Shown piece after piece: positions 3 to 62,792 of a DNA stretch of 64,000 bases. How positions within the stretch are numbered: position 1 is the stretch's first letter; each line of letters opens with the position of its first letter. The notes below the pieces were generated by a model. The model did not search any database. It was not told the DNA's origin and worked only from the letters and a program-made list of their open reading frames with translations. Location: IMG/VR virus record IMGVR_UViG_3300013117_000027; one strand, written 5' to 3'. This stretch comes from a virus. The translations under genes and the position numbers were made by a program.

Positions 3-3000
3 GTTCATCTTGCTCTTGATCAAAGAAATAATAAAGTTAATCCTGATGCACAGAAATTAAACCTAATGAGATCTGCTAGGAATAAGAGAGTATTAGAGTT
101 AAAAGTTATTCAAACAGCTATCAATCTCGCTCTTGCTGGATCAAAATTAGACACAGATCATGGTAAAGATAAGTATTCAGGAACTAATCAACCAGCTTAT
201 TTATCAGACGACAAATCGTTGATAAGTGATACAAGGCTAAGAAGTTCCTTAGAAGGCGCGTCGTATCAACAACTAAGGAAGATGGCAGATCTTATAAGAA
301 AATACTTTAGACATTATACTAACGAAGAACAAATGAAACACGAAGAAGTTATCAATAAAGATACACCAAGTATACGTTTTTTCGAAGAGACTGTATACAC
401 TCTTGTTACACAGTTAATAATCTTAGGAGATGCTATAGCTGAGTTCGAATCTGGTAATCTTACTGTTACGTCATTATTAACCGACATACCTGAGATGGGA
501 TTACTAGATTGGTATAACTGGAGAAATATAGATGATATCAATGATAAGAAAATATCTTTAATGAGTGACTTCTTAGAAGAAGACACTAATAGAACTCGTG
601 GGTATAACCAAAAAATGTTTCCTACATTTAAGGTATTCTTTGTAGAAGAAGATGGTAAGACTATAAGCGTAGATGACTACTACGCTTATAACGCTGTACA
701 GTCTATAGACATTATTAAGAATAAGTATTCAGCATCTTCTACCGCTGTTATAAAATTAGGTAACGTATACGGTAATCTTACTAATAAGATATCTTTAATG
801 AAAGAATCTGATCAGATTCTAGACATACTTCTTAACCAAAGAGATAATAGAATATTCTTAGGAAGTCTAGATATTAAGCCAGGTGTTAAGATAATAGTAA
901 AAATGGGATACGGAGCTAATGATAGAGATCTTAAGATAGTTTTTATCGGTAAGGTAGTAGAGATGAGTGCTGGTCCTATCACTGAGTTAGTAGCTCAATC
1001 TTACGGTGCACAATTATCACATGAGATTACTAAGATGCACTTTGGAGTTCTTAACTCTAGAAAAGAACATGGAGATATAGCATCAGCTGTTTTAGACGCT
1101 ATACCATCATTAGATGGTCTAGGTAAACCATCACTCTTAGGATTAAATCCAGTTAATTATAGTGGAAGACGTAGCGCTTTCTATGATGGAACATTGTTTG
1201 ATAGATTCTTAATGTCTAATATAACTACAAGAGTTAATACCACGTTGTTTCAAGAAGATAATCCTAGAGATGAGAACATATACCTTCCGGTGGATCTGAT
1301 ACCTGATATTACAAAGAACGTTACATTCGACTGGATAGTTTATAATCAAACAGTATGGCAAGCTTTACATGAGTTAAGTCTTTATCACGATAATACTATT
1401 CCTATTATAAGACCTTATAATGATGGTATGTTCTCTACGTTGGATGACGCAAGAGAAACTATTGTAGTAGGTAAGAAGAGTGGGTGGTATAAACACACAG
1501 ATGCATTCAGATATACTACAAGAGATATCGATAAACTAGGTAACCTTATAGATGATTGGAACACTAAGTACTGGAAGTTCTTAATGGAATTAAGACAGAA
1601 GATACAGAAAACTAGAACTTTACTAATAGATGCACCATCTGGCCAAGCAGCTCCAAAAGATGTAATTCTTGCCGAGTACCTTGTTCAAGAAGGATTAATG
1701 AAGAAGGAAGTTCAAGAAGTAAGGAAGACTGGTATTGATGTTACTGTTACTATTACTAATTACTATCCAAGAGGCAAGTTAAAGAATTTACTTGTAGGTC
1801 TGTCTAGTAAACAGTTAGCTCTCGTAGTTACTAAAGCTATAGAAGATAATGCTCCTCAGGTAGACACTAGAAATCTTGGTACTATGCAATTACTCGTAGA
1901 CACTGTAGCTAGAGTTGTTCCAGGTATATGGGAAACTACAGCTAACAAACTAAGAACTTCTATATTAAAAGTAGGATTCAATGAAGCTATAAGTGATAGA
2001 AAAGCTGACGAAGTTATCGTCATGGAAAGTAGAGTATTTCAAAGAGCTAATTCTAGTCCAGGCACACCAACTGTTACTATAAGACATTCTATATTTGATG
2101 TTATACTTAACTTTGGTAGTGTGCCTCGACGATATGAGAATTTTGTACAAAGACTTAATGATCTTAAGCCTTATCAATTCTTAGGTGTGTCTGCTAAGGA
2201 GTTAGATAATAATCAAGATAAATTTGTTAACGATCCAAGATATAGAAAGATTCAACGTCAACATTTAATAACAGATACTAGTGATATTATATCTAACGAG
2301 ATAGTCTTATCTGAAGATTTTAACAACGCCGTGAAGGTATACTATTTATCAGAACCTAAGTTTTATACAGACTTAGGAAGTATAAGTGCTGATGATCAAG
2401 AGAAGTTATCATGGGACACTGTTAAAGCTTTTGGAGATACAAGAGATACAGACGTACGACTTCTAGAAACTTATCAGAAGAACATAGATACAAACTGGTA
2501 TGAGATACGAAAGTACAATGAGGAAGTTCTTGGTAAATATAGTACTATGTATAAGAAGAATAGAGAGTCAGATAATCAAAATAATAAGAACTATAAGATT
2601 ACAATGAACGAATTACCATCTTACAAGAAAGTTGGTATTAATCTTCTTATACGAGAAGTTGAAAAGATGTATAGAGGTAATATAACTATTATAGGAAATC
2701 CAGCTATAGAACCGATGGACATTGTTCATATAGAAGATTCTATGAATAACATGGATGGACCTATAGAGATAGAAGAAGTTATACATTCATTCTCTCCCAC
2801 AACCGGGTACACGACTACACTTACTCCTTCGTTAATAACATACGATAGAGATCCTATAGCTATGAGTGATCTTAGTGTTATACATAGAATACTTACAACT
2901 GCTGAAAGTAAGAGAAGTTCTACAAGGATGTGGGCATTCGCACAAGCAACTGCGGCTGGTATAGCTTCGACGTTCGCTATTGCTGACATAGTAGGTGGAA

Positions 3001-3425
3001 CAAAAATAGGTGGTATTATGACACTTATAGGTACTGTTCCTGCTATGGCATCTTCGTTGTGGAATATGGTTGTAGGTGTAGAGAAAAGATATAACAAGTT
3101 CATATACGATCATATGGCAAATGTGTTCGGACGTGATTGTATAAACTTCTCAGCTTTACACTACAAAGATAAACCTTATATGACAGGTTTTGGTGGTGTA
3201 GACTACACTAATATAAAGACATTAATAAATCACCAATGGCAAGGTCTTGGGGTTATAGAAAGATTAGCAACATCTAATGATGTAGAAGGTAAGTGGATTG
3301 AAAACTCAACATTCTCTAAAGATTTACCAGTATTTAAATATCTTCTTCAGGAAGATGTACCAGTTGTTGGTAAACCGTTATACTATATAATGAAATTCTT
3401 TGGAAACGATTCATGGGGACAATAG
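3..3425 (+). CDS. Large virion structural protein, baseplate hub-like C-terminal region (5'-partial)
   Basis: Frame is open from the window edge. The segment MYRGNITIIGNPAIEPMDIVHIED...IEEVIHSFSPTTGYTTTL resembles gp27/gpD-type hub proteins. It lies upstream of gp25-like and J-like genes. Confidence 0.6.
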   Translation, partial: VHLALDQRNNKVNPDAQKLNLMRSARNKRVLELKVIQTAINLALAGSKLDTDHGKDKYSGTNQPAYLSDDKSLISDTRLRSSLEGASYQQLRKMADLIRKYFRHYTNEEQMKHEEVINKDTPSIRFFEETVYTLVTQLIILGDAIAEFESGNLTVTSLLTDIPEMGLLDWYNWRNIDDINDKKISLMSDFLEEDTNRTRGYNQKMFPTFKVFFVEEDGKTISVDDYYAYNAVQSIDIIKNKYSASSTAVIKLGNVYGNLTNKISLMKESDQILDILLNQRDNRIFLGSLDIKPGVKIIVKMGYGANDRDLKIVFIGKVVEMSAGPITELVAQSYGAQLSHEITKMHFGVLNSRKEHGDIASAVLDAIPSLDGLGKPSLLGLNPVNYSGRRSAFYDGTLFDRFLMSNITTRVNTTLFQEDNPRDENIYLPVDLIPDITKNVTFDWIVYNQTVWQALHELSLYHDNTIPIIRPYNDGMFSTLDDARETIVVGKKSGWYKHTDAFRYTTRDIDKLGNLIDDWNTKYWKFLMELRQKIQKTRTLLIDAPSGQAAPKDVILAEYLVQEGLMKKEVQEVRKTGIDVTVTITNYYPRGKLKNLLVGLSSKQLALVVTKAIEDNAPQVDTRNLGTMQLLVDTVARVVPGIWETTANKLRTSILKVGFNEAISDRKADEVIVMESRVFQRANSSPGTPTVTIRHSIFDVILNFGSVPRRYENFVQRLNDLKPYQFLGVSAKELDNNQDKFVNDPRYRKIQRQHLITDTSDIISNEIVLSEDFNNAVKVYYLSEPKFYTDLGSISADDQEKLSWDTVKAFGDTRDTDVRLLETYQKNIDTNWYEIRKYNEEVLGKYSTMYKKNRESDNQNNKNYKITMNELPSYKKVGINLLIREVEKMYRGNITIIGNPAIEPMDIVHIEDSMNNMDGPIEIEEVIHSFSPTTGYTTTLTPSLITYDRDPIAMSDLSVIHRILTTAESKRSSTRMWAFAQATAAGIASTFAIADIVGGTKIGGIMTLIGTVPAMASSLWNMVVGVEKRYNKFIYDHMANVFGRDCINFSALHYKDKPYMTGFGGVDYTNIKTLINHQWQGLGVIERLATSNDVEGKWIENSTFSKDLPVFKYLLQEDVPVVGKPLYYIMKFFGNDSWGQ

Positions 3426-3436
3426 AAAGGTAAGAA

Positions 3437-4252
3437 ATGGAATATTTAGAAAATAGTCAACTGAAGTTCTTTGTAGCAGAGATAGCTTCTAGTAACTACT
3501 ATAATCAAGAGCAGAATGTTATACGTATAAAACTGCCTATAGATGATACAACATATAAGTACTTTGATATGTACTTTATTCAAAGTGTCGATTTCCCTAA
3601 CCCGGACGATCATCACGCCTTAGTTGCTACAAATCCTGATGTTATAACAGGCTTAAAGAATGCTATATTAGATGGAGACGATAGACTAGAATTAATGCCT
3701 GGTTATAAAGATCAACAGACACTAAACGAACAGATAACGTTCGGGTTTGTATGGTTAATTAATAAGAGACTTAAAACTTCTACAACAGGTTCTAATGATG
3801 GTAGTGCGGGTATGCATAATCAGAACGCATCCTCTACAACAGATACATCCAAACTTAAGTATTCGATATCTCCATCGTTAGCTAGAGACTATACTACTAC
3901 ACGAGGTAGTTCAAGAGACAACTATAATAACGAGAATATAGGTCTATTTATTACTGATAATTCTGTCACATTAAAGTCTTCTGAAGCTTCTCTAGTATTA
4001 GGACCAGACGGTATGTCTTTACTAGGACCGAAATTTGAAAGTAATACAAAAGGCGGGAAAGGCATGATGGCAGACAATCCTTTCTGTGGATGGTTCCCAT
4101 CTACGATAATGACTATACCGTTAGGTATAGAGTACATACCTAACTTTAACTATATTCTGAGTATAGGAAGTGCATGTCAACGACTTAATAAAGGGATGGC
4201 TACAATAGGTAAGGTTACCAAGAATGTTACTAACTTTATAAGGAGAAAATAA
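3437..4252 (+). CDS. Putative baseplate spike/gpV-position protein
   Basis: Synteny between hub-like and gp25-like genes; short beta-strand run IGLFITDNSVTLKSSEASLVLGPDGMSLLG. Confidence 0.4.
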   Translation: MEYLENSQLKFFVAEIASSNYYNQEQNVIRIKLPIDDTTYKYFDMYFIQSVDFPNPDDHHALVATNPDVITGLKNAILDGDDRLELMPGYKDQQTLNEQITFGFVWLINKRLKTSTTGSNDGSAGMHNQNASSTTDTSKLKYSISPSLARDYTTTRGSSRDNYNNENIGLFITDNSVTLKSSEASLVLGPDGMSLLGPKFESNTKGGKGMMADNPFCGWFPSTIMTIPLGIEYIPNFNYILSIGSACQRLNKGMATIGKVTKNVTNFIRRK

Positions 4253-8309: not shown

Positions 8310-10527
8310 AGATATATTTGTTAGAGCAGTAGCATCAGGAGACGGAACAGGTCTCGACTGGTATAATGCTTATACTACATTACAAGATGCTCTTACAGAG
8401 GCAATGGCTGAGCCTGCAGCTAACACAGTTAACGTATATGTTGATGATGATATTTACACGTTGGCTTCTCTTACAGTCAGTCATAACTCAATTAATCTGT
8501 ATGGTGGTAATATTCTTACTGCTGACGTTGTTGTGTCTGGATATAATGAGATACCTGTTGGTACAACTTTTAAAAGTATTGTTTACCTAGAAGACTCAGT
8601 GTACGTACAAAGTGGTGTATTTATAACAGATTCTGTTAGGTTTATTAACTCTTCTGGAGGCTACGCTATCCAAGGTGAAGATCTTACTGACATACTTCTG
8701 AAGAAAGTTAACTTTGAAACAGACTACGGTATTGATACTAGTGGTAATCTTAGATGTGAGTTCATAAATGCTATATCGTATACTCCTCAGGAGTATACAT
8801 ATGGATTTGGAGGTTCTTACATAGCAGAGTCTGGATATTCGGACGCATTGTCTGGCAACATATTTATTAATAGTGTCGGAGAAGAGACAGTAGTTAATAA
8901 TTCCTCAATGATAGGTTACTATAACACTATAGTATTTAATGGTATCAACGACAATGAATGTATTATAGACGACGTACTTATAAAGCAGGCATCTAATGGT
9001 ATAGTTTATCAATCAGTGGGCGGTAGTGGTACATTGCGTACCAATAATATCGTTATATACGATACAGATAAATCTTTCTTATTTAAAGATACTACTATAT
9101 CAGGTGGATTAAACGGAGAGATAGGTAACTGTACATTATATACACCTTATTCATTCTCTATATCTCCTATGATAACAGGTCTTATACAGATAACAGATTC
9201 TATAATGTCCGGCGAAATGATCTACGGAGACGGTTCTCTTACTCTTACTACAGAGTACACTTTATTAGATACTACTCCCAGTGGTTACGGATTTGTTCCT
9301 GGAACAGGTATAGTCTATGGAGATCCTAAGTATATAGATGTAACAAAAGGTGACTTCAGTCTTGGAATAGGTACTGCTGACGATAGAGTATCATCTGATG
9401 GTCTTAATGTGGGATCTTATACAGAGATAGGAAGAAGTATACAATTGTCTGACTCCAAAGGATTTAGATTATCAGATTCAAGTGTAGAAGGATATGATAT
9501 GTTCTTACATAAGAGCGACGAGACCGTCGTATGGTCAGATCATATGAAAGAGATTCCTATGGCCACATTTAGAGATAATAATGGTACGTTATCGTATGTT
9601 TATAATCATACTACTACAGTAGTATTGTCTGGTGTTGTTACTATTCCTGCATTTTCTAGAGAACCTTCTTTAAACGATTGGATGTACGAATGGGACTATG
9701 AGATAATGAACAGTCCTGGTATCGAGAATAATCCTAGGATCATTCCTAAGTCTATTATAGATATTACAAATATCTTACAGAATATAGACTACGGTAAGAA
9801 TAAATCTAATATAAGCGTAAGAGCATTTAAGAATATAGATAATAGAGGCATTAGTTATGACTATGACTCTTCTAACAATACAAGTAAAATCGTATGGTCT
9901 TTGGATGGAGATCAGATGTTAACAAAGACAGACTTTTGGAACGGAAACGTTATAGATAAGTATCCACTTGTTCCTCCTATTCATCCTTCTGGTGAGAAAT
10001 TATTTATTAAACCTTCTGGACTTATACCTTATGGAGTTAATAAATATGTGACAGAGGATGATCCTGATACTATCCTAGAAAGTGTAAATGATGACGGTTC
10101 GTTTGAATGGTTATCTACAGAGAAACATAGGAAGTGGGATTTAAAAGGTATTTTAACTCATAAGGGAACTATGTATGTAACAGCATCTTTTGCTGACCAA
10201 GCATCTACAACTCCTTACGTTCTAATATATCCTAGTAGAGGTTACTATGCTGATTATCAATGTCCTGATCCTACAAAGTTAGAATTACACGATGATAACA
10301 ATGATCCAAGAGGCATAACTGTTTATGAAGACGGAAGCATTCTTATTAGCAACTACGATGTTATGTCATCCGGAATTGCTAACTATGTGAATATATTTCA
10401 CTATAAGCCATGCTTTGACTATGCTTTAAAAGAAAATAATAACTATATGAATACAAAACTTATACTTCGTGAGGCTTATGACGAAGTAACATTAGAACAG
10501 GCATTAGAAGAGCCTGATACACCATAA
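8299..10527 (+). CDS. Tail-associated protein with right-handed beta-helix (pectin-lyase-like) N-terminal domain
   Basis: N-terminal IFVRAVASGDGTGLDWYNAYTTLQDAL and closing GDPKYIDVTKGDFSL are typical beta-helix caps; propeller-like C-terminus (DPRGITVYEDGSILISN). Confidence 0.6.
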   Translation: MANKDIFVRAVASGDGTGLDWYNAYTTLQDALTEAMAEPAANTVNVYVDDDIYTLASLTVSHNSINLYGGNILTADVVVSGYNEIPVGTTFKSIVYLEDSVYVQSGVFITDSVRFINSSGGYAIQGEDLTDILLKKVNFETDYGIDTSGNLRCEFINAISYTPQEYTYGFGGSYIAESGYSDALSGNIFINSVGEETVVNNSSMIGYYNTIVFNGINDNECIIDDVLIKQASNGIVYQSVGGSGTLRTNNIVIYDTDKSFLFKDTTISGGLNGEIGNCTLYTPYSFSISPMITGLIQITDSIMSGEMIYGDGSLTLTTEYTLLDTTPSGYGFVPGTGIVYGDPKYIDVTKGDFSLGIGTADDRVSSDGLNVGSYTEIGRSIQLSDSKGFRLSDSSVEGYDMFLHKSDETVVWSDHMKEIPMATFRDNNGTLSYVYNHTTTVVLSGVVTIPAFSREPSLNDWMYEWDYEIMNSPGIENNPRIIPKSIIDITNILQNIDYGKNKSNISVRAFKNIDNRGISYDYDSSNNTSKIVWSLDGDQMLTKTDFWNGNVIDKYPLVPPIHPSGEKLFIKPSGLIPYGVNKYVTEDDPDTILESVNDDGSFEWLSTEKHRKWDLKGILTHKGTMYVTASFADQASTTPYVLIYPSRGYYADYQCPDPTKLELHDDNNDPRGITVYEDGSILISNYDVMSSGIANYVNIFHYKPCFDYALKENNNYMNTKLILREAYDEVTLEQALEEPDTP

Positions 10528-15986: not shown

Positions 15987-18190
15987 TGGTAAAGCAATAC
16001 GATATAAAAAACAATATAAAGAGTATACAAAGTGTACTTGTTAGTGAGTCTATAAAAGAACGTTCTAATCTACAGTTACTCAAATCAGAGGAAGCTATAA
16101 GAAATGTTCTACAATCGTACTCAGATAAAATGAATGCAACAGGTGATAAACTTACAAAGTTATCTCAACATCTTGTTAATTCTAAAGATATAATATCTAA
16201 AGATAAGTTCAATGATCTGTTTAATAGTCTTTACATTGATATCAAGACCTTGTATCAACACATAGACTATGTTGATGAAGTCTTATCCCTTAATCTTCAT
16301 AGAAATAGAAAGTTCTTTAATGTTCTTAAGAAAAGGATGAGAGAGTTATGGAATAAGTTAGTTCTTACAAGACTTAATATTACAGATAGTTCTCAGTTTG
16401 ACGAATCATACTTTGAAGCATTCTCTACTATTAATTCTAAACATAGATATGTAGGAGTTTTAATAGACAAGAAATCTGGCGTAATGACTCTAGAACCAAG
16501 AGAAAGTTTTATTCATAATAAGAAATACTTAATAAAAGATATACAGACCAAAACATATCCTGTTCATAACAAAGAAGGTGGAGTTATCCATACTACTAGT
16601 TATCTTAATAGTTTTGCATCGTCTTATAGAAGAGATGGACAGCGTGACATGTTAGAGAACGGATTATGGAAAGAACAGATACTTTGTAATGATATTCCTG
16701 ATATCAAGTACGATATCAAAGATGATCTAACAGAGATAGACCAACTCTTTAAGTCTGTTAACGGTATTCTATCGTTTGTAGACATAGAGTTTACACAACC
16801 TATTCAATTTAACGACATAGAGATTGACTTATTCGGTGACTACCCTATAACGTTAGTTTCTATAATGTGTAAGAGTGAAAGCGATGGTGTTTGGCAACCA
16901 GTAAAGAAGCTTGATAGTATTGAAGTTGATAATGGGTATCAGACTTATGATAACTCAAAAGAAGAGACGGCTTTCGACGTACTTTCTATCAAGAATATTG
17001 AACGTACCAATGCTAGATTTATGAGACTAGTATTCAACCAGAACAACTACGACATCCTTGATAGCAGTGAGTTTTCTATTAAAGATCTAGAGGATAAGAT
17101 TAATAATGATCTCTCTGAAAGACGTTATGAGGTTGTTAAGTTAGATGGAGGATCTGATGATCGCCCAGCGATCCCAAAGAGTTATGATAATGACTCTCTA
17201 TATTCACAGGTAACTGACGTAATAGAAGATACTAGAAGTTTAGAGGAGACTATAACTAAAATTATAAATATATTGGAACCGACACCTAAGCTTCAGTCTA
17301 TCGACTTTAAAAAGACACTTAAGTATGAAGTTGGCGCTTGGTCTATAGAACCAAGGTACCAATCTTACTCAGGAACAGGTAAGTTTAACTCAGGAGATTA
17401 TCCTATACGTGATAGGTCACTGATCTCCGTTAACTTACTTACAAAGCAAGAAGATATAAAATATAATACTTGTAACTGGTTCGTTAGTAACCGAGGATAT
17501 AATAAACATATACCTATTATAGAAAATGATAGGAGAGTTAGAAAAGAACCTGCTTATATTATAAATCCTGATTATTTTACAGATTATACTCAAGGTACAT
17601 TTATTCACTTAGACTTACCTTCTTCTAATATAGACTTTGCTGATAATACAAAGATATGGATAAATGGCGGAAGGGAGAACGGTGGAGAACCTTATCCTTT
17701 AACAGCTTTTACTTGGATAAGACTTAATTCTACTCTTATACACATAGAAGATATACAGGATATTTATAAGAATGATTATGTTATACAATATGTGCCAGCG
17801 TCATTAGATGCAGTATATATGTATACTCTAGAGAAATTAGGAGAGGAAGAAGAAGGAGATCTTCTACCTTATGAGGTTGTAGCGTCTAGAAAATCTATGT
17901 TAAGGTACTTCCTTAGTTCGATAGATAAGACTAATGAGTACGTCATAAAGACGACGAGAGCTACTACGTTAGAGGCTGAGCTATGGTTTAGAACTAATAG
18001 ACACACTTTATGTATCACGAAGGCTGTAGAAATGTTATACAGTGATAAGATACCTCCTGCTATGAGACCGACTTTAAATGTTATCACAGGTACTAGATCT
18101 AGTAAAGACCTCATAGTGTCTAGAGATATAGATAGTAATATGGACTTACCACCAATGATGCCTATAATCATCGAAAGGGACATTACATAA
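15986..18190 (+). CDS. Virion structural protein (paralogous family with N-terminal helical segment)
   Basis: KFNDLFNSLYIDIKTLY...EAFS...IDKKSGVMTL pattern shared with ORFs at 19580, 25793 and 29267. Confidence 0.5.
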   Translation: MVKQYDIKNNIKSIQSVLVSESIKERSNLQLLKSEEAIRNVLQSYSDKMNATGDKLTKLSQHLVNSKDIISKDKFNDLFNSLYIDIKTLYQHIDYVDEVLSLNLHRNRKFFNVLKKRMRELWNKLVLTRLNITDSSQFDESYFEAFSTINSKHRYVGVLIDKKSGVMTLEPRESFIHNKKYLIKDIQTKTYPVHNKEGGVIHTTSYLNSFASSYRRDGQRDMLENGLWKEQILCNDIPDIKYDIKDDLTEIDQLFKSVNGILSFVDIEFTQPIQFNDIEIDLFGDYPITLVSIMCKSESDGVWQPVKKLDSIEVDNGYQTYDNSKEETAFDVLSIKNIERTNARFMRLVFNQNNYDILDSSEFSIKDLEDKINNDLSERRYEVVKLDGGSDDRPAIPKSYDNDSLYSQVTDVIEDTRSLEETITKIINILEPTPKLQSIDFKKTLKYEVGAWSIEPRYQSYSGTGKFNSGDYPIRDRSLISVNLLTKQEDIKYNTCNWFVSNRGYNKHIPIIENDRRVRKEPAYIINPDYFTDYTQGTFIHLDLPSSNIDFADNTKIWINGGRENGGEPYPLTAFTWIRLNSTLIHIEDIQDIYKNDYVIQYVPASLDAVYMYTLEKLGEEEEGDLLPYEVVASRKSMLRYFLSSIDKTNEYVIKTTRATTLEAELWFRTNRHTLCITKAVEMLYSDKIPPAMRPTLNVITGTRSSKDLIVSRDIDSNMDLPPMMPIIIERDIT

Positions 18191-18912
18191 TGGATGAAAA
18201 ACAGACTCTTTATCCTGAGAGTGCTTTACTAACATCGACATTTATACCTTATTACTTTGAGCCAAAGAAGGTATCAACAATAGATAGTACTCTTATTAAG
18301 GATGATAATTATACTATAGAACAAGATGTTAACGGACTATCATCTATCATATCAGTAAGAGATATACCTTATATTGATATATCTAAATATGATCACCTAA
18401 GGAAGCGTTTTTTCTGGACAGATCAGTTTGATAATAGATGGAGAGTATTTCTCCCAGGAGACTGGATAGAACAAGAGCAATCATTTTGGCCAGAAGACTT
18501 CACATATAATGTTTATCAAAGTATAGAAGGATTACTTGATGGTGATCTATGGACTGTAACATCTTTAAAGTTAGAAGACTTTAATATACAACAGTTTAGA
18601 CCTATATCTGTGAGAGTTAACGGAGTTGAACTAGAGGATGTAAGTAACTACGCAGGAGATAGAAATATTATACCTAAGTTAGACAATATAGATCCTTCTA
18701 CTAATAAACAGTTTTACTACGATATGAAGAACACTATATATACTAACCAAGATTTCGATCTTTTTGAAGATGATAATATAGAGATTACTTATTTTAAGAA
18801 CATTGATAGTGTTCAGATCTATGGAAGACTGAATACTAATGTTACAAATCTCTCATCTTACACACCGGTGGTAGATTACTACATAATAAAACTGTCTAGC
18901 CAGAACCTTTAG
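18190..18912 (+). CDS. Hypothetical structural protein
   Basis: Coupled ORF; C-terminal TPVVDYYIIK resembles the ends of neighbouring structural ORFs. Confidence 0.5.
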   Translation: MDEKQTLYPESALLTSTFIPYYFEPKKVSTIDSTLIKDDNYTIEQDVNGLSSIISVRDIPYIDISKYDHLRKRFFWTDQFDNRWRVFLPGDWIEQEQSFWPEDFTYNVYQSIEGLLDGDLWTVTSLKLEDFNIQQFRPISVRVNGVELEDVSNYAGDRNIIPKLDNIDPSTNKQFYYDMKNTIYTNQDFDLFEDDNIEITYFKNIDSVQIYGRLNTNVTNLSSYTPVVDYYIIKLSSQNL

Positions 18913-18920
18913 GAGTTTAA

Positions 18921-19580
18921 ATGCATAAAATAGATATACAACAGTTAAAACTTGATTGGGATGAATGTAGAAATTTAACACAGTTAGAAAAAATATATAG
19001 TTGTTCAAGAAAGACATTAGCTAGAAGACTTAACGGTATAGGTATAGACACAAATAAAAGACTATATCCTATTATAGAAGGTAAGAAAGAGTGTAGAGAA
19101 TGTGGTAATACATTAACTATAGACAACTTTCATTCTATAAAAGTGACTATATGCAGAAAGTGTATTAAGAAGTATAATAAACAGTATCAATGTAATAATA
19201 GATCTCATATAAATGCTAGCAGGAAACAACGTTATATCAATGATACTGGATACAGAATAGAATGTAATATAAGAAGTAGATTATGTAATGTTCTTGCTGG
19301 TAAGAATAAATCTGCTTCAACTAAAGAACTTTTAGGTTGTACAATAGATGAACTCAAAACGCATCTTCAGTCTACAGCTATTATTAATGGTTACAAAGAC
19401 TTCGATATTAATAGCTACTTAGGACATGAATATCACATAGACCATATACGTCCATGTTCTTCTTTTAATCTTAAAGATGAAGAAGAACAAAGACAGTGTT
19501 TTAACTGGTCTAACTTACAAATCCTTTCAGCTAAAGAGAATTTTAAGAAGGGTAATAAACTAACAGGACAAAATCTATAA
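18921..19580 (+). CDS. Free-standing HNH homing endonuclease
   Basis: CxxC...CxxC zinc motif, YHIDHIRPCSSF...CFNWSNLQILSAKENFKK HNH core, own AGGAG RBS; interrupts the structural operon. Confidence 0.85.
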   Translation: MHKIDIQQLKLDWDECRNLTQLEKIYSCSRKTLARRLNGIGIDTNKRLYPIIEGKKECRECGNTLTIDNFHSIKVTICRKCIKKYNKQYQCNNRSHINASRKQRYINDTGYRIECNIRSRLCNVLAGKNKSASTKELLGCTIDELKTHLQSTAIINGYKDFDINSYLGHEYHIDHIRPCSSFNLKDEEEQRQCFNWSNLQILSAKENFKKGNKLTGQNL

Positions 19581-20962
19581 TGAATAGTTACGTAAGAAAA
19601 ATAAATGAGAAGTATATATCTGATTTTAAATTTAGAATACAATCTGGTATAGCAGAGCTTGTCCGTAGTACAGATGCTACAGTTTTAAAAGTTATATTAC
19701 AAGAGGTTAATAGACTTTTTAGAATAATGTCAGGAAGACTTGTTTCAAGATTAGACATTCCTATGCCTGATAGATTCCCTGATGCTGACAAGTTTAACAG
19801 TTTTATATCTGATATAGATATAGATCTTGATAAAGTATTTACTGCTCAAGAGTTAGTCTCTAACGATGTTCAGAATGTCGTTAATTTTAACTCTCTTGAA
19901 AGAGAAAAAGCTAGAAGAAATCTAGCAGACGCTCAGAAGAAAGTTTATAATGTATATATAAAGTCTAAGATGGGTTTAGATGGTGCAACTGTTATAAGAG
20001 AAGACTTTAGAGATGATAGGTTGTATGCTGAATCTAATGGTGTACAGATAAATCTTAACAAAGAGAATCTTACACTTAAAGTAGAAGAAAGTTTTGTAGA
20101 TAGAAAGTCTGTTCATAAAGATAAGGTTGATATATATTTTACGGAGTTACCAGACGAGGGTTTCAAACTTTATCCTAATAATAGAAACTTAGCTTTAGGA
20201 TCATTCTGGAAGCGCGGTACCAGTGATATTCATTTCACTGCTAAAAACGACGAAGGAAGATACAAGACTTATATGGTAGATGAGAACGATGGAGTTAACG
20301 TCGGTAGCACTCAATTCGAAGCTGTTTATACGTACGAACAAGCATCTAATCTTAGTATCAGAGATAGAGTTGAACGCGAGTTAGGTAATTATCTTAATCT
20401 TCATCCTAGCTTTATAATGATAGACGATGCTATATCTATTCGTAGAACTTATATTACTCAGAAGTCAATGGAAGGTATAGAGGAAGTTATTAACCCTAGT
20501 ATTAAACTTGTAGTACCTTTTAAAGGAGAAGCTCCGGTTGGTACAACGTTTATAGTAGACTTAGAAGGTAACGATGCTAATGTTATTCCTACGATTGATG
20601 TTGCTAAGTCTTTTGTTTACGACGAAAATAATAGGAAAGTTAAATTTCAAAAGATACCTGATTCTAAAGTGGATGAGTACGGTAAGACAGGTAGATATGA
20701 GTTAGTCTTTAACGAACCATTAAGACCTACAAGGATGGAACTTATATGTTTCTTTAACTCTAATGCTTGGGCTGATATAACAGAATATATGATTTCTGAA
20801 TATTTATTCGAGAAAATTAAAAAGATAACTTTACAGACTAATCTAGGTAATATAGAAACTATTTTAAGAAAGAAAGCATACGTGTTCGTTGATGCTGAAA
20901 GTGATCTTTTAAATGAAAGACGTAGAGCTAACGACGTAATGCAGTTTAAAGGAGTTAAGTAA
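19580..20962 (+). CDS. Virion structural protein (paralogous family)
   Basis: KFNSFISDIDIDLDKVF...EDFRD...INLNKENLTL pattern. Confidence 0.5.
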   Translation: MNSYVRKINEKYISDFKFRIQSGIAELVRSTDATVLKVILQEVNRLFRIMSGRLVSRLDIPMPDRFPDADKFNSFISDIDIDLDKVFTAQELVSNDVQNVVNFNSLEREKARRNLADAQKKVYNVYIKSKMGLDGATVIREDFRDDRLYAESNGVQINLNKENLTLKVEESFVDRKSVHKDKVDIYFTELPDEGFKLYPNNRNLALGSFWKRGTSDIHFTAKNDEGRYKTYMVDENDGVNVGSTQFEAVYTYEQASNLSIRDRVERELGNYLNLHPSFIMIDDAISIRRTYITQKSMEGIEEVINPSIKLVVPFKGEAPVGTTFIVDLEGNDANVIPTIDVAKSFVYDENNRKVKFQKIPDSKVDEYGKTGRYELVFNEPLRPTRMELICFFNSNAWADITEYMISEYLFEKIKKITLQTNLGNIETILRKKAYVFVDAESDLLNERRRANDVMQFKGVK

Positions 20963-58209: not shown

Positions 58210-58368
58210 TTACCTTTGTAGTTCGTTATCGAGTTGTTCTACTAAAGACATGAAGTCCTCGAAGTGTAAAGCACAGTACACGTCACTACGGTTATGTTTA
58301 AAAACAAGTAGCGGTGTAAGGTCCCTATTATCTCTAGCGCTCTGCTCCAAGGAACTCCATGTATTATT
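58210..58368 (-). pseudogene. C-terminal half of a phage Holliday-junction-resolvase-like gene
   Basis: Unlisted frame NNTWSSLEQSARDNRDLTPLLVFKHNRSDVYCALHFEDFMSL...stop; no N-terminal half nearby. Confidence 0.6.
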
Positions 58369-59159
58369 TATCTTAGTCCACCAGCTAGTCTTATACGAAT
58401 ATCTTTTTTAAAAGATTCTTCTTGAGCATCTAACCATTCTAACAACTTTATTAAACTTTTTTCTTCTAATGAACCTTTTATACTATTAGATGATTTAGAT
58501 ATCATCTGAATATTATCTTTATTAGACGGCCCACCTTTTGACACCGGAATTATATGATCAAATACCATATTTTTATATGTTACTATTCTATTAGAATCGT
58601 ACTTACATGTTTTACCATATGAATCTAATATAATCTGTCGTATATCATCTAATGTGATATTACATTCTGTGTTATACTTTTTTGATCTAGCTACCATACA
58701 TGTTTTAGCGTTAATAGATTTCTTTAATAGTTTATCAGCTATTTTATCTATATTACGTTTATGATATAACTTCAACATAGATATATATTTCTCTTTCCAT
58801 ATATCTTTGCTATGTTTCTTTCTTTTTCGTACTCGTCTTCTTTCATTCTTAACTTTTATATATTCTTTAGAAGGTGGATTTCTTTTGTTCCATGCTTTCT
58901 TTATACATTTATTTGAACAGTATTTTCGTTTATGCTTACTTTTAAACGAACCATTACAATGTGAACATATACCTGTATATAATGAACGTTCGGTTTTGTT
59001 CTTCAGTATGTTATCTTTTGAAAGTTGTTTATGTTTATCCCAATTGCCAATCTTTTTAAGATTGTTTAATATAGTTGATTTAGAGATGTTATATTTTTTT
59101 GATAACTCTCTAGTGGACTTCCCACTTATGTATTCTTTAAGAATATCATTATATAGCAT
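58368..59159 (-). CDS. Free-standing HNH homing endonuclease
   Basis: N-terminal HTH, CSHC..YCSNKC, FDHIIPVSKGGPSNKDNIQMISKSSNSIKG; own promoter and AGGAG RBS. Confidence 0.85.
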   Translation of the reverse strand: MLYNDILKEYISGKSTRELSKKYNISKSTILNNLKKIGNWDKHKQLSKDNILKNKTERSLYTGICSHCNGSFKSKHKRKYCSNKCIKKAWNKRNPPSKEYIKVKNERRRVRKRKKHSKDIWKEKYISMLKLYHKRNIDKIADKLLKKSINAKTCMVARSKKYNTECNITLDDIRQIILDSYGKTCKYDSNRIVTYKNMVFDHIIPVSKGGPSNKDNIQMISKSSNSIKGSLEEKSLIKLLEWLDAQEESFKKDIRIRLAGGLR

Positions 59160-59302: not shown

Positions 59303-59617
59303 TTAGGTTGTAGTTGCATTCTTATCCTCTATATATTCTATTGATCCACTCATGTCTTCATACTCTAAGACTCTCGATCCGAATGTGCATTGGAGCCACC
59401 TTTTAAGTATGATCGAATCATCTCCTTTGATACTATGTTTACTACTACTGCTAGCAGTAGGAACATATATCCTAGCATGGTGATTAGGACATAAAAAAAC
59501 CCTGTTAAACTCTTTATTACTTCCACCATCAGATTGTTGCTCGATGTGGTGGGACTCGATCTGTGTCCTGTGTTCTGTTTCATAGTCACATCCTGGAAAG
59601 TTACATTTATAATTCAT
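59303..59617 (-). CDS. Small HNH endonuclease
   Basis: CNFPGC, HHIEQQSDGGSN...LCPNHH. Confidence 0.75.
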   Translation of the reverse strand: MNYKCNFPGCDYETEHRTQIESHHIEQQSDGGSNKEFNRVFLCPNHHARIYVPTASSSSKHSIKGDDSIILKRWLQCTFGSRVLEYEDMSGSIEYIEDKNATTT

Positions 59618-60791: not shown

Positions 60792-61625
60792 CTATAGGTT
60801 ATGTTTAAGAAGGAACTCAGGATTGATACTACCATCGTATAAGAACTTAAGTTCTAATACTTCGCTTGGTTTAATATCGATCTCATCAATATTACGTTTA
60901 GCGTTAAGTTTAGACTCGTCTAAAAGTTCATGATATGAGTATAGTTTCTTTCCTTTTCTTCCAGTTTTTTGTCTCTTACTAAATTGTTCCATAAATAGTT
61001 CTAAGTCTTCTTTAAGATAGTTTTGTCTTTCGTCTTCGAAGTTTAAAGTTGCATCGTCTCCATATAGATATAATGCTAATCTATCATATGACTTAGCAGC
61101 CTCAATCTCATCGTCATAACATTTACGATATCGTTTACCCATATATGTTATATGAGTCTCGTATGTATTAAATTTTGTAGGAAATACTCCACAATATTTG
61201 TGTGTAGTTTTTCGTTTACCTTGATGTGATATAGCTGATCTACCGTAAACTTTCTTTTTCTCTTCTTTAGACATTTCCTTAAATCTTTTAACTTGAGATT
61301 TAGACATCTTTTCACGGACTTCTTTTGAGAATACTTTTAACCCATCTTCTTGGTTTATCATGTTATAACCTATTGTAGGATCCATACTATTTAAAGTATC
61401 TATCCATCTCGCTTCAGCACGTATAAGTTCTTTTTCACATGAAACTTTTTCTACAACTTGAAACTCAAAGTTTTCAAAACCGTATTTTCTTAATGCTCTA
61501 TGAAATGCATATTCAGTATGTTTATAAGCTCTTTTATGAGTGCTTATCCGTTCTTCTAAAGACTTAGTGGTAAGACCTATATAGATCTTACTATTTACTT
61601 TGTTAGTAGCCTTATAAATATTCAT
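60792..61625 (-). CDS. Free-standing GIY-YIG homing endonuclease with AP2-like DNA-binding domain
   Basis: NIYKATNKVNSKIYIGLT..R..H, GYN, YCGV...EAAKSYD...YGDDATLNF; AAAGGA RBS. Confidence 0.88.
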   Translation of the reverse strand: MNIYKATNKVNSKIYIGLTTKSLEERISTHKRAYKHTEYAFHRALRKYGFENFEFQVVEKVSCEKELIRAEARWIDTLNSMDPTIGYNMINQEDGLKVFSKEVREKMSKSQVKRFKEMSKEEKKKVYGRSAISHQGKRKTTHKYCGVFPTKFNTYETHITYMGKRYRKCYDDEIEAAKSYDRLALYLYGDDATLNFEDERQNYLKEDLELFMEQFSKRQKTGRKGKKLYSYHELLDESKLNAKRNIDEIDIKPSEVLELKFLYDGSINPEFLLKHNL

Positions 61626-61700
61626 TATAATCCTTTCATTATACAATATCTAGACTTGTTATCCAAGTCTTATACGTTATACTATACTATAATGTTCGGA

Positions 61701-62792
61701 TTAAAGCGACCATTTTAACAAGAATTCTGGGTTCACGCATTTAAAACTGATTCTACTGTCAGTCTTAAGTCTCCATACATCTCCTTCTTGTTTAATATCT
61801 GCTAACGTACTTCTTGATTTAGAAAGTTCTACAATGTCTGTCATCGAACCAGGAAGTCTTATATCTTCATCACGTATAGGTACGTGTTGTAGATCTACCT
61901 TGGCGCACATTGTTATAAACTTATCATAAGGTACATTCTCACCTTTATCTATATCATATATGTTGAAGGCATAGAAATCTAGTTCATTAAGTCTATACTT
62001 ATTTTTTTGAATGGCAGGTCCTACTATCTCACCTTGGATAGCATAGTTGCCACCAAGACGTCTTAACTTAGATCTTATGTTCTTCTTATAAAATATTGAC
62101 CAATAGTTATTTGTTGTTGGTCTCTTGAGCCATATGTTTCTAGAACATACAAACTCTTCAGTCTTATATGTGATACCTAAGAACTTCTTACGTACCATAG
62201 CAAATGTTGCTGATTGACCGTCTAACTTTTCTGTACGATAGAATATCAAATCTTTAAAGCGTCTCACAATAGATGGAGAAGATTGTATTCTTGTTTCATC
62301 TGTCTTCTTAAGGAAGTCTGGCCATCCACCCTTACGTTTTGTTGTAAGTTTTCTGAACCATTTATACCTAAGGAAGTATTTATATATACGTCCATGTTTA
62401 GCAGCTTCTGCAGCTTGTGCAGCCATTGCTTTTTCTGTAGCAAGTTCTGGATCATGCTTAACGACGTCTAAGATATCTGTTACGTCATCACCTTCTTTAA
62501 CAGACTCTTTTAATTTATTAGGGAAAGCAGTTATTGGTAATGCTAATCCCTGAGCGGCGAATCCCATAAACTTTGCTGTCTTAACACGGTACTTTCTTGA
62601 TTCCATGAACTCAAACTGTTCCCATGGAGGAAGTATACTGTCTATTTCAAAGTATACACAACGATCACCTTCTTTAAATTCGCCCTTTTTTACTATACAT
62701 TGCCAGCCAAGTATGTATGCCTTCTCGATAGTCTTAGCGCCTTTAATAGACTCTATCTGTTTGACTATCTGTATTGATGCTAGTTTTCTCAT
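61701..62792 (-). CDS. RNA ligase (Rnl2/DRB0094-like with N-terminal OB-like domain)
   Basis: RKLASIQ, YFEIDS, motif I TEKLDGQS, QGEIVG, FYAFNI, EGDVWR, SFK. Confidence 0.88.
   Translation of the reverse strand: MRKLASIQIVKQIESIKGAKTIEKAYILGWQCIVKKGEFKEGDRCVYFEIDSILPPWEQFEFMESRKYRVKTAKFMGFAAQGLALPITAFPNKLKESVKEGDDVTDILDVVKHDPELATEKAMAAQAAEAAKHGRIYKYFLRYKWFRKLTTKRKGGWPDFLKKTDETRIQSSPSIVRRFKDLIFYRTEKLDGQSATFAMVRKKFLGITYKTEEFVCSRNIWLKRPTTNNYWSIFYKKNIRSKLRRLGGNYAIQGEIVGPAIQKNKYRLNELDFYAFNIYDIDKGENVPYDKFITMCAKVDLQHVPIRDEDIRLPGSMTDIVELSKSRSTLADIKQEGDVWRLKTDSRISFKCVNPEFLLKWSL

Follow-up and report, generated by a model that had tools for sequence, protein, structure and literature searches.

How can a selfish nuclease gene settle in an essential, tightly packed structural operon of a phage without an intron or an intein? 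This question is raised by a stretch of 64,000 nucleotides from the virus record IMGVR_UViG_3300013117_000027 (hereafter the window), which corresponds to a tailed-phage genome with a virion and tail module. A free-standing gene of the window for an HNH-type homing endonuclease of 219 aa (18921-19580, plus strand) lies between a gene of the tail/baseplate module encoding a 240-aa protein (18190-18912, plus strand), which we call the host gene, and a structural gene encoding a 460-aa protein (19580-20962, plus strand). A first-pass annotation of this DNA had noticed that the HNH open reading frame (ORF) ends much as the upstream gene does. We find it likely, from the comparison of sequences, that the HNH gene is a free-standing homing endonuclease gene inserted near the end of the host gene, whose native tail it reuses as its own end. 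The answer suggested by this locus is that a spare gene end was brought in, while the old one was reused, including the ribosome-binding site of the next gene.

The two gene ends and the empty alleles

The host gene ends with KLSSQNL and the stop TAG (18889-18912, plus strand, spelled aaa ctg tct agc cag aac ctt tag), and the HNH ORF ends with KLTGQNL and the stop TAA (19557-19580, spelled aaa cta aca gga caa aat cta taa). As the first-pass annotation had remarked, the two ends are similar as peptides while their codons differ: 5 of the 7 residues are identical and 9 of the 24 bases are different. The HNH ATG starts eight bases past the stop of the host gene. Its own ribosome-binding site, AGGAG (18911-18915, in the region 18911-18923, plus strand), overlaps the host TAG and is followed by a 5-base spacer and the ATG; this TA(A/G)GGAG-spacer-ATG style of start is shared with the junctions at 10527/10538, 11797/11807 and 24405/24414. 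At the other end of the HNH ORF, the final A of the TAA is the first base of the ATG of the 460-aa ORF (19580). This one-base TAATG overlap is indeed, as had been stated, the usual junction of the operon, with six further instances at 4252, 4761, 13405, 15986, 18190 and 25793.

The C-terminal heptapeptides of all 78 ORFs of at least 80 aa in the window were compared tail against tail, a protein-level scan that detects in-frame tail copies only. KLSSQNL and KLTGQNL rank first among the 3003 pairs, with a score of 25 (mean -6.3, standard deviation 5.8). When HNH tails were paired with mismatched upstream tails from other loci (n = 2238), the maximum was 19, against 21 for this locus on the same measure. 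The likeness of the two tails exceeds chance. A corresponding scan of the window ORFs for shared N-termini, as would result from replacement of a gene head, gave no adjacent pair.

Which of the two ends is native can be read from relatives of the host gene, which comprise four protein homologues and five loci (L001 to L005) obtained from a metagenome scan. The HNH gene is absent from all five loci, whose protein identity ranges from 78% to 35%. The closest, L001, is 78% identical and shows the gene order of the window (695/734/239/460/466/680 aa) without the HNH gene; L002 is 50% identical, L003 and L004 40%, and L005 35%. In each of them the last codons of the host gene abut the ATG of the next gene, the 460-aa gene coming directly after the 240-aa gene in 5/5. 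The C-terminal motif K-L-x-G-Q-x-L is kept, the tails reading KLTGQNL (L001 and the proteins P0004 and P0005), KLLGQNL (P0003), QLKGQNL (L002), KLAGQKLNV (L003 and L004) and KLRGQDLR (L005). The first-pass annotation had expected relatives lacking the endonuclease gene to end with KLTGQNL-TAATG, and L001 does so; KLSSQNL, the ending that it regarded as telling against its proposal if found in empty alleles, occurs in none of the five related loci, which all end otherwise, nor in the listed protein homologues.

The correspondence with L001 extends to the DNA. The L001 bases ACAGGACAAAATCTATAATG (L001:7087-7106) are identical to window positions 19563-19582 (20/20), through the ATG of the next gene, and the alignment from 19563 carries on into the 460-aa gene, collinear in both. 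Overall, the tail at the HNH end shares 22 of 24 bases with L001, the last 20 being identical, while the working tail of the host gene shares 14 of 24. Since the empty allele of L001 ends with KLTGQNL and with these last 20 bases unchanged, the KLTGQNL copy is the native tail in its original position relative to the next gene, and the KLSSQNL copy is the newcomer that replaced it. This supports the earlier proposal that the element supplied the host gene with a recoded tail. The displaced native tail, (K)LTGQNL and TAA (19560-19580, plus strand), is in frame with the HNH ORF and supplies the final six residues of its product. Of the 17 bases that end with the ATG of the next gene, L002 still retains 16, despite a protein identity of 50%. 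Other collections yielded no further relatives: BLASTN with the locus and TBLASTN with the 240-aa protein found no match in 50,697 phage records, scans of IMG/VR with alignments of the 240-aa and 460-aa proteins found none, nor did a scan of GTDB genomes, and an exact search of IMG/VR for the left junction of the cassette gave 0 matches.

The native tail does more than end a protein. All relatives have the Gly codon (GGA, GGG or GGT) of the tail 10 to 13 bases ahead of the ATG that starts the next gene, and together with the adjoining bases this codon forms a ribosome-binding site, which in the window is the AGGA at 19565-19568. The native tail is thus the translation start region of the 460-aa gene. 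In the working tail this Gly is replaced by Ser (AGC), the sole such case among the relatives examined; the tail then runs into TAGGAG, which gives the nuclease a strong ribosome-binding site, and the ATG comes after five more bases. Because the native tail holds both a ribosome-binding site and the TAATG overlap, its inclusion in the end of the HNH ORF amounts to a capture of the translation signals of the next gene. This takeover of the presumed translational-coupling signals is legible in the sequence and agrees with what the first-pass annotation had suggested. A scan for promoters and terminators around the HNH gene found sites no more numerous than in shuffled sequence.

The HNH nuclease and its C-terminal extension

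The 219-aa protein matches PHROG 1035, 'endonuclease VII', with an E-value of 7e-12. Its homologues comprise proteins from 54 phage records, annotated as HNH endonuclease, endonuclease VII or hypothetical, and 80 proteins from metagenomes. Residues H172, D174, H175, N198 and N207 are invariant in our alignment (A2), in the pattern ..HIDHI.PC...NLQIL....N..K, which is that of an HNH catalytic motif. The AlphaFold model (mean pLDDT 85) shows an N-terminal three-helix bundle of the helix-turn-helix (HTH) type, a Cys4 zinc ribbon and a C-terminal H-N-N core ending at K213; a PDB profile search gave only a weak match to the zinc ribbon of Hpy99I (E 0.065). The gene forms an ORF by itself, with a ribosome-binding site and a start of its own, embedded in neither an intron nor an intein, and it is missing from collinear relatives, which is the sporadic presence that characterizes a free-standing homing endonuclease gene.

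Comparison with the homologues places the end of the nuclease proper. Twelve of 17 aligned homologues stop 0 to 2 residues from the position of K213. The nearest homologue, P0007, is a paralogue encoded in the same genome of 140,858 bases, beyond the limits of the window; its last 127 residues show 80% identity, and its final residue is precisely the lysine matching K213. Because P0007 and most homologues stop at or near this position, the residues LTGQNL are six host codons added to the nuclease as a captured extension. In the model of the HNH protein, residues 214-219 form the only segment with pLDDT below 50, which is partly expected, the alignment being gapped there.

The shared ending could also be a coincidence or a property of the nuclease family, whose members would happen to end in a sequence like K-L-x-G-x-x-L. 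The distant homologue P0018 does end with NKLNGKL, and the lysine of the tail is also that of the nuclease motif G-N-K. Against this, KLTGQNL ends 0 of the 80 homologues and none of the HNH ORFs tabulated from IMG/VR loci; the same ending on HNH homologues at unrelated loci is what the first-pass annotation had thought would contradict it. In addition, the DNA from 19563 is collinear with the empty allele of L001 and runs into the next gene, and the tail pair is the first of the 3003 in the window. The termini of the homologues and the identity with L001 effectively refute this explanation, to which we assign a negligible probability.

An Rfam intron search of 18000-20400 gave no match, and no intron RNA was detected at the HNH locus or at the GIY-YIG locus described below. 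A group I intron or another structured RNA was rejected on this ground for both loci.

Two observations concern the homologues themselves. The N-terminus of P0007 differs from that of the HNH protein and consists of a zinc ribbon and a long basic linker, instead of an HTH plus ribbon, which suggests re-use of the nuclease module together with a new domain for target recognition. Besides, three metagenome homologues, P0018, P0009 and P0013, bear odd extensions past the conserved G/S-N/D-K end (NKLNGKL, ..YELTGD and ..YSQPLSL), and these might be captured host tails as well.

Mode of insertion and origin of the replacement tail

The insertion, the identity of the native copy, the extension of the nuclease by host codons and the preservation of the start signals are established here. 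In our preferred reading, the element entered the 240-aa gene five to seven codons ahead of its stop, within a cassette of three pieces, in which the nuclease ORF is preceded by a replacement gene end (KLSSQNL, TAG) and by a strong ribosome-binding site. The new end maintains a full-length host protein, and splicing is unnecessary. The displaced native end remains downstream, and because it is read in frame as the final six residues of the nuclease, the nuclease ORF ends at the original stop of the host gene. The next structural gene retains its own ribosome-binding site (Gly codon GGA) and its TAATG overlap. The enzyme would cut the empty allele near these codons, a few before the stop, and spread via double-strand-break repair. 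At the left end, repair would have copied the tail of the donor, its stop, the ribosome-binding site and the nuclease gene, the replacement tail being that of a more distant relative and part of the incoming cassette. Short homology would have served to close the right-hand junction, so that the recipient kept its own tail on the far side of the cut. Short homologies do exist at this junction: AAACT is in frame on both sides, and TAATAAA is one base out of register.

The foreign origin of the working tail was examined by counting synonymous differences with L001. In four genes, a fraction of 0.40 to 0.45 of the codons that specify the same amino acid in the window and in L001 are spelled differently. 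The figure is 5 of 5 for the working tail, whose stop differs as well, compared with 2/7 in the native tail. The last 23 codons of the host gene (18845-18912) show 12 synonymous differences out of 16 against a background of 0.40, a fraction reached by 0.95% of 3153 sliding windows across six genes, while the start of the downstream gene is without such an excess. Such a pattern agrees with the arrival, together with the nuclease gene, of a short stretch of DNA from a more distant source, the numbers being small; 18845-18912 may represent a short tract of co-conversion to the left of the element. Homing usually entails co-conversion of flanks (PMC2988022), and an inserted C-terminus of foreign origin is also how comparable fungal cases have been interpreted (PMC3630166).

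It is a reasonable inference that the recoding renders the occupied allele resistant to cleavage, although the recoding is equally well explained by the foreign origin of the tail or by selection against deletion between the repeats. It may guard the occupied allele against re-cutting or against such deletion.

The same counts bear on another origin of the two tails, by local duplication and later divergence. In this view, insertion duplicated some 21 bases of the target, and the upstream copy, released from serving as the ribosome-binding site of the next gene, then drifted to its present spelling, with no imported tail. Loss from the upstream copy of the codon for Gly, which belongs to the ribosome-binding site, fits such a relaxed constraint, and a near-identical duplication (14-base and 12-base repeats) surrounds a related HNH gene in the viral contig L018, described below, which has the look of a young local duplication. 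However, divergence of all 5 same-amino-acid codons and of the stop exceeds the background of 0.40 between the window and L001, which is itself free of the element. Drift to that level would place the insertion before the split from L001 and would demand a precise loss in L001. Moreover, the raised synonymous divergence spans about 23 codons and reaches past the duplicated stretch. Taken together, these points make an origin by local duplication unlikely.

Another explanation addresses the nuclease rather than the tails. The HNH gene may no longer be mobile, or may never have been, and may instead be a fixed late gene, for instance for a packaging-associated or an exclusion nuclease. Its strong ribosome-binding site, its place in a tightly coupled late operon and the dependence of the coupled translation of the next structural gene on it would suit such a role; the gene is present on every contig of this phage on record, and HNH proteins with packaging roles are known from work cited in PMC12724721. 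In contrast, the gene is missing from all five relatives, which share the gene order, and the tail duplication has the character of an insertion scar. The paralogue P0007, with its different DNA-binding domain, lies elsewhere in the genome, which also holds several other homing-type nucleases and an intron. Domestication is improbable in our view, and it concerns only the present function of the gene, leaving its origin unchanged.

We thus retain the insertion of a homing endonuclease gene that brought a replacement gene end. Several points weigh against it. No Pfam family was found for the 219-aa protein at E-values up to 0.1, and Foldseek with the whole HNH model gave nothing at E up to 0.001, HNH-containing entries appearing only at E of about 3 to 6; because of these two negative results, the assignment as a nuclease rests on PHROG 1035, the motif and the annotated homologues. 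All 5 contigs on record carry both the host and the HNH gene at 99% identity or more, so that the occupied state represents a single lineage. The strong conservation of the native tail is partly due to its role as the start region of the next gene. The statistics for a foreign origin are weak, the tail being seven codons long, and the in-frame fusion of the native tail to the nuclease could be chance, at one in three. Finally, the phage is uncultured.

Recurrence of the design and comparison with known elements

A second instance of the design, which involves an unrelated nuclease, is present in the same genome. The gene for an RNA ligase on the minus strand (61701-62792, 363 aa, PF21189 and PF09414) ends with CVNPEFLLKWSL-TAA, and the gene for a GIY-YIG homing endonuclease behind it (60792-61625, PF01541, E 4e-12) ends with SINPEFLLKHNL-TAG. 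These tail copies, at 61701-61739 and 60792-60830, form the second of the 3003 tail pairs of the window, with a score of 22, and BLASTP of the two termini gives 8 identical residues out of 12 aligned. The GIY-YIG protein ends in a recoded copy of the ligase C-terminal motif INPEFLLK; indeed, SFK-x-INP-x-FLLK is the conserved C-terminal motif in the listed termini of RNA ligase homologues, while GIY-YIG homologues in phages align to residues 1-187 only. At the DNA level hardly any synonymous site is shared between the two copies (15 of 33 bases differ), and TC(C)GAACA stands 3' of both stops. The likely start of the GIY-YIG gene is the ATG at 61625, which follows a hairpin (61652-61670), a TATAAT (61638-61643) and an AGGA ribosome-binding site. 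The RNA ligase relatives in IMG/VR are at most 40% identical, too distant to assign the native tail; if this case is like the first, empty ligase alleles are expected to show a tail of the KHN type followed by TCGAACAAAT.

A third case comes from the 80 IMG/VR loci with HNH homologues, of which those with an upstream ORF on the same strand were compared tail against tail. One such locus was positive, L018 (IMGVR_UViG_3300018014_000026, 2300-3500), on an unrelated viral contig. Its DnaB-like helicase ends with KKWYKNKN, and the HNH ORF that comes next, 43% identical to that of the window, ends with LDWYKNK. The DNA holds exact repeats of 14 bases (at 2320 and 3433) and of 12 bases (at 2340 and 3471), so that L018 looks like a young duplication without recoding; an empty allele of L018 was looked for and none was found. 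The layout is not general to the HNH family, yet it is recurrent: a single phage shows it two times, each with a nuclease of a different, unrelated family, and the unrelated contig L018 adds one more instance.

The closest parallel known is found in fungal mitochondria, where mobile endonuclease ORFs (mORFs) create 'gene hybrids' in atp6 of Allomyces macrogynus, atp6, atp9, cox2 and nad3 of Glomus, atp9 of Rhizopus and cox2 of Mortierella (PMC3630166). In these cases the gene continues in phase into a foreign C-terminus, after which come the endonuclease ORF and, downstream, the native C-terminus, closest to that of the sister species (PMC3630166). The HNH locus likewise has an endonuclease ORF in the 3' part of a gene and the C-terminal codons twice, with the upstream copy in phase (18889-18912 and 19557-19580), and it presents every structural feature of an mORF, in a different replicon (a tailed phage, not a mitochondrion). 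The GIY-YIG case shares the doubled C-terminal codons (61701-61739 and 60792-60830). The native copy is the one nearer to the relative (91-98% in Glomus, 22/24 bases at the HNH locus), and the inserted copy is diverged in DNA and conserved in protein (64-81% there, 15/24 bases here). In either setting two nuclease families share the design, LAGLIDADG and GIY-YIG in fungi, HNH and GIY-YIG here. The replaced piece is shorter in the phage, 7 and 12 codons against 17 to about 90 in fungal mORFs. A further difference is that the native tail of the HNH locus is no dead remnant: it is translated as the C-terminus of the nuclease and bears the start signals of the next gene.

Among phage elements, the Seg and Mob endonucleases of T4 type, which spread by 'intronless homing' (PMC2988022, PMC2790892), are likewise free-standing between conserved phage genes, sporadic, and composed of a nuclease and a DNA-binding domain. 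Their signals overlap or are coupled with neighbouring ORFs, as in the UAAUGA of mobE/nrdA, and co-conversion of flanks is expected, as here. However, they are described as intergenic or as overlapping the upstream ORF, whereas the present element is placed within the coding sequence, for which it provides a new end; the review of T4 free-standing endonucleases (PMC2988022) mentions no duplicated gene end. F-CphI of cyanophage S-PM2 (PMC6083498) is also a free-standing beta-beta-alpha-metal nuclease beside its target gene. In its collaborative homing the occupied allele is protected by a change of the target that consists of a group I intron in psbA, while the protection proposed here would be a recoded gene end. 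In our literature search the tail-replacement design was described for fungal mitochondria only, and no phage precedent was found.

One may go further and ask whether phage free-standing homing endonucleases commonly travel as 'cut-and-rescue' cassettes, in which a nuclease is joined to a recoded replacement end for the essential gene that it cuts, a design adopted independently by HNH and GIY-YIG enzymes, with the native end kept for the translation signals of the neighbour. We put this forward as a tentative generalization, with somewhat less than even confidence. If it is true, many phage nuclease genes annotated as intergenic lie inside coding sequence, and the left edge of the native tail that is retained could be used to predict the cut site. 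Phage homing elements would then be given other boundaries, and the cassettes would be a natural counterpart to engineered 'home-and-rescue' gene drives. In these drives, as described (PMC7968924), the nuclease is carried with a recoded 3' end of the targeted essential gene, which is the same concept; the drives are synthetic, Cas9-based and made in insects, which makes this an analogy only, and not a family relationship.

Some minor features of the two loci may be added. Two more HNH-type ORFs lie near the GIY-YIG gene on the minus strand, one of 263 aa with an N-terminal HTH (58368-59159, PF01844 and PF14279) and one of 104 aa (59303-59617, PF01844); neither shares a tail with its neighbour. 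The working tail of the host gene (18910-18912) and the GIY-YIG ORF (60792-60794) both stop with TAG, while most genes of the operon use TAA.

As regards the host protein, no Pfam or PHROG family was found for its 240 residues, and the neighbouring 734-aa gene matches PHROG 20243, a virion structural protein. The AlphaFold model of the host protein is poor (mean pLDDT 62). The C-terminal 34 residues (207-240, window 18808-18912) are among the best conserved of the family, yet this monomer model predicts them to be unstructured (pLDDT below 50); they may form a contact between subunits.

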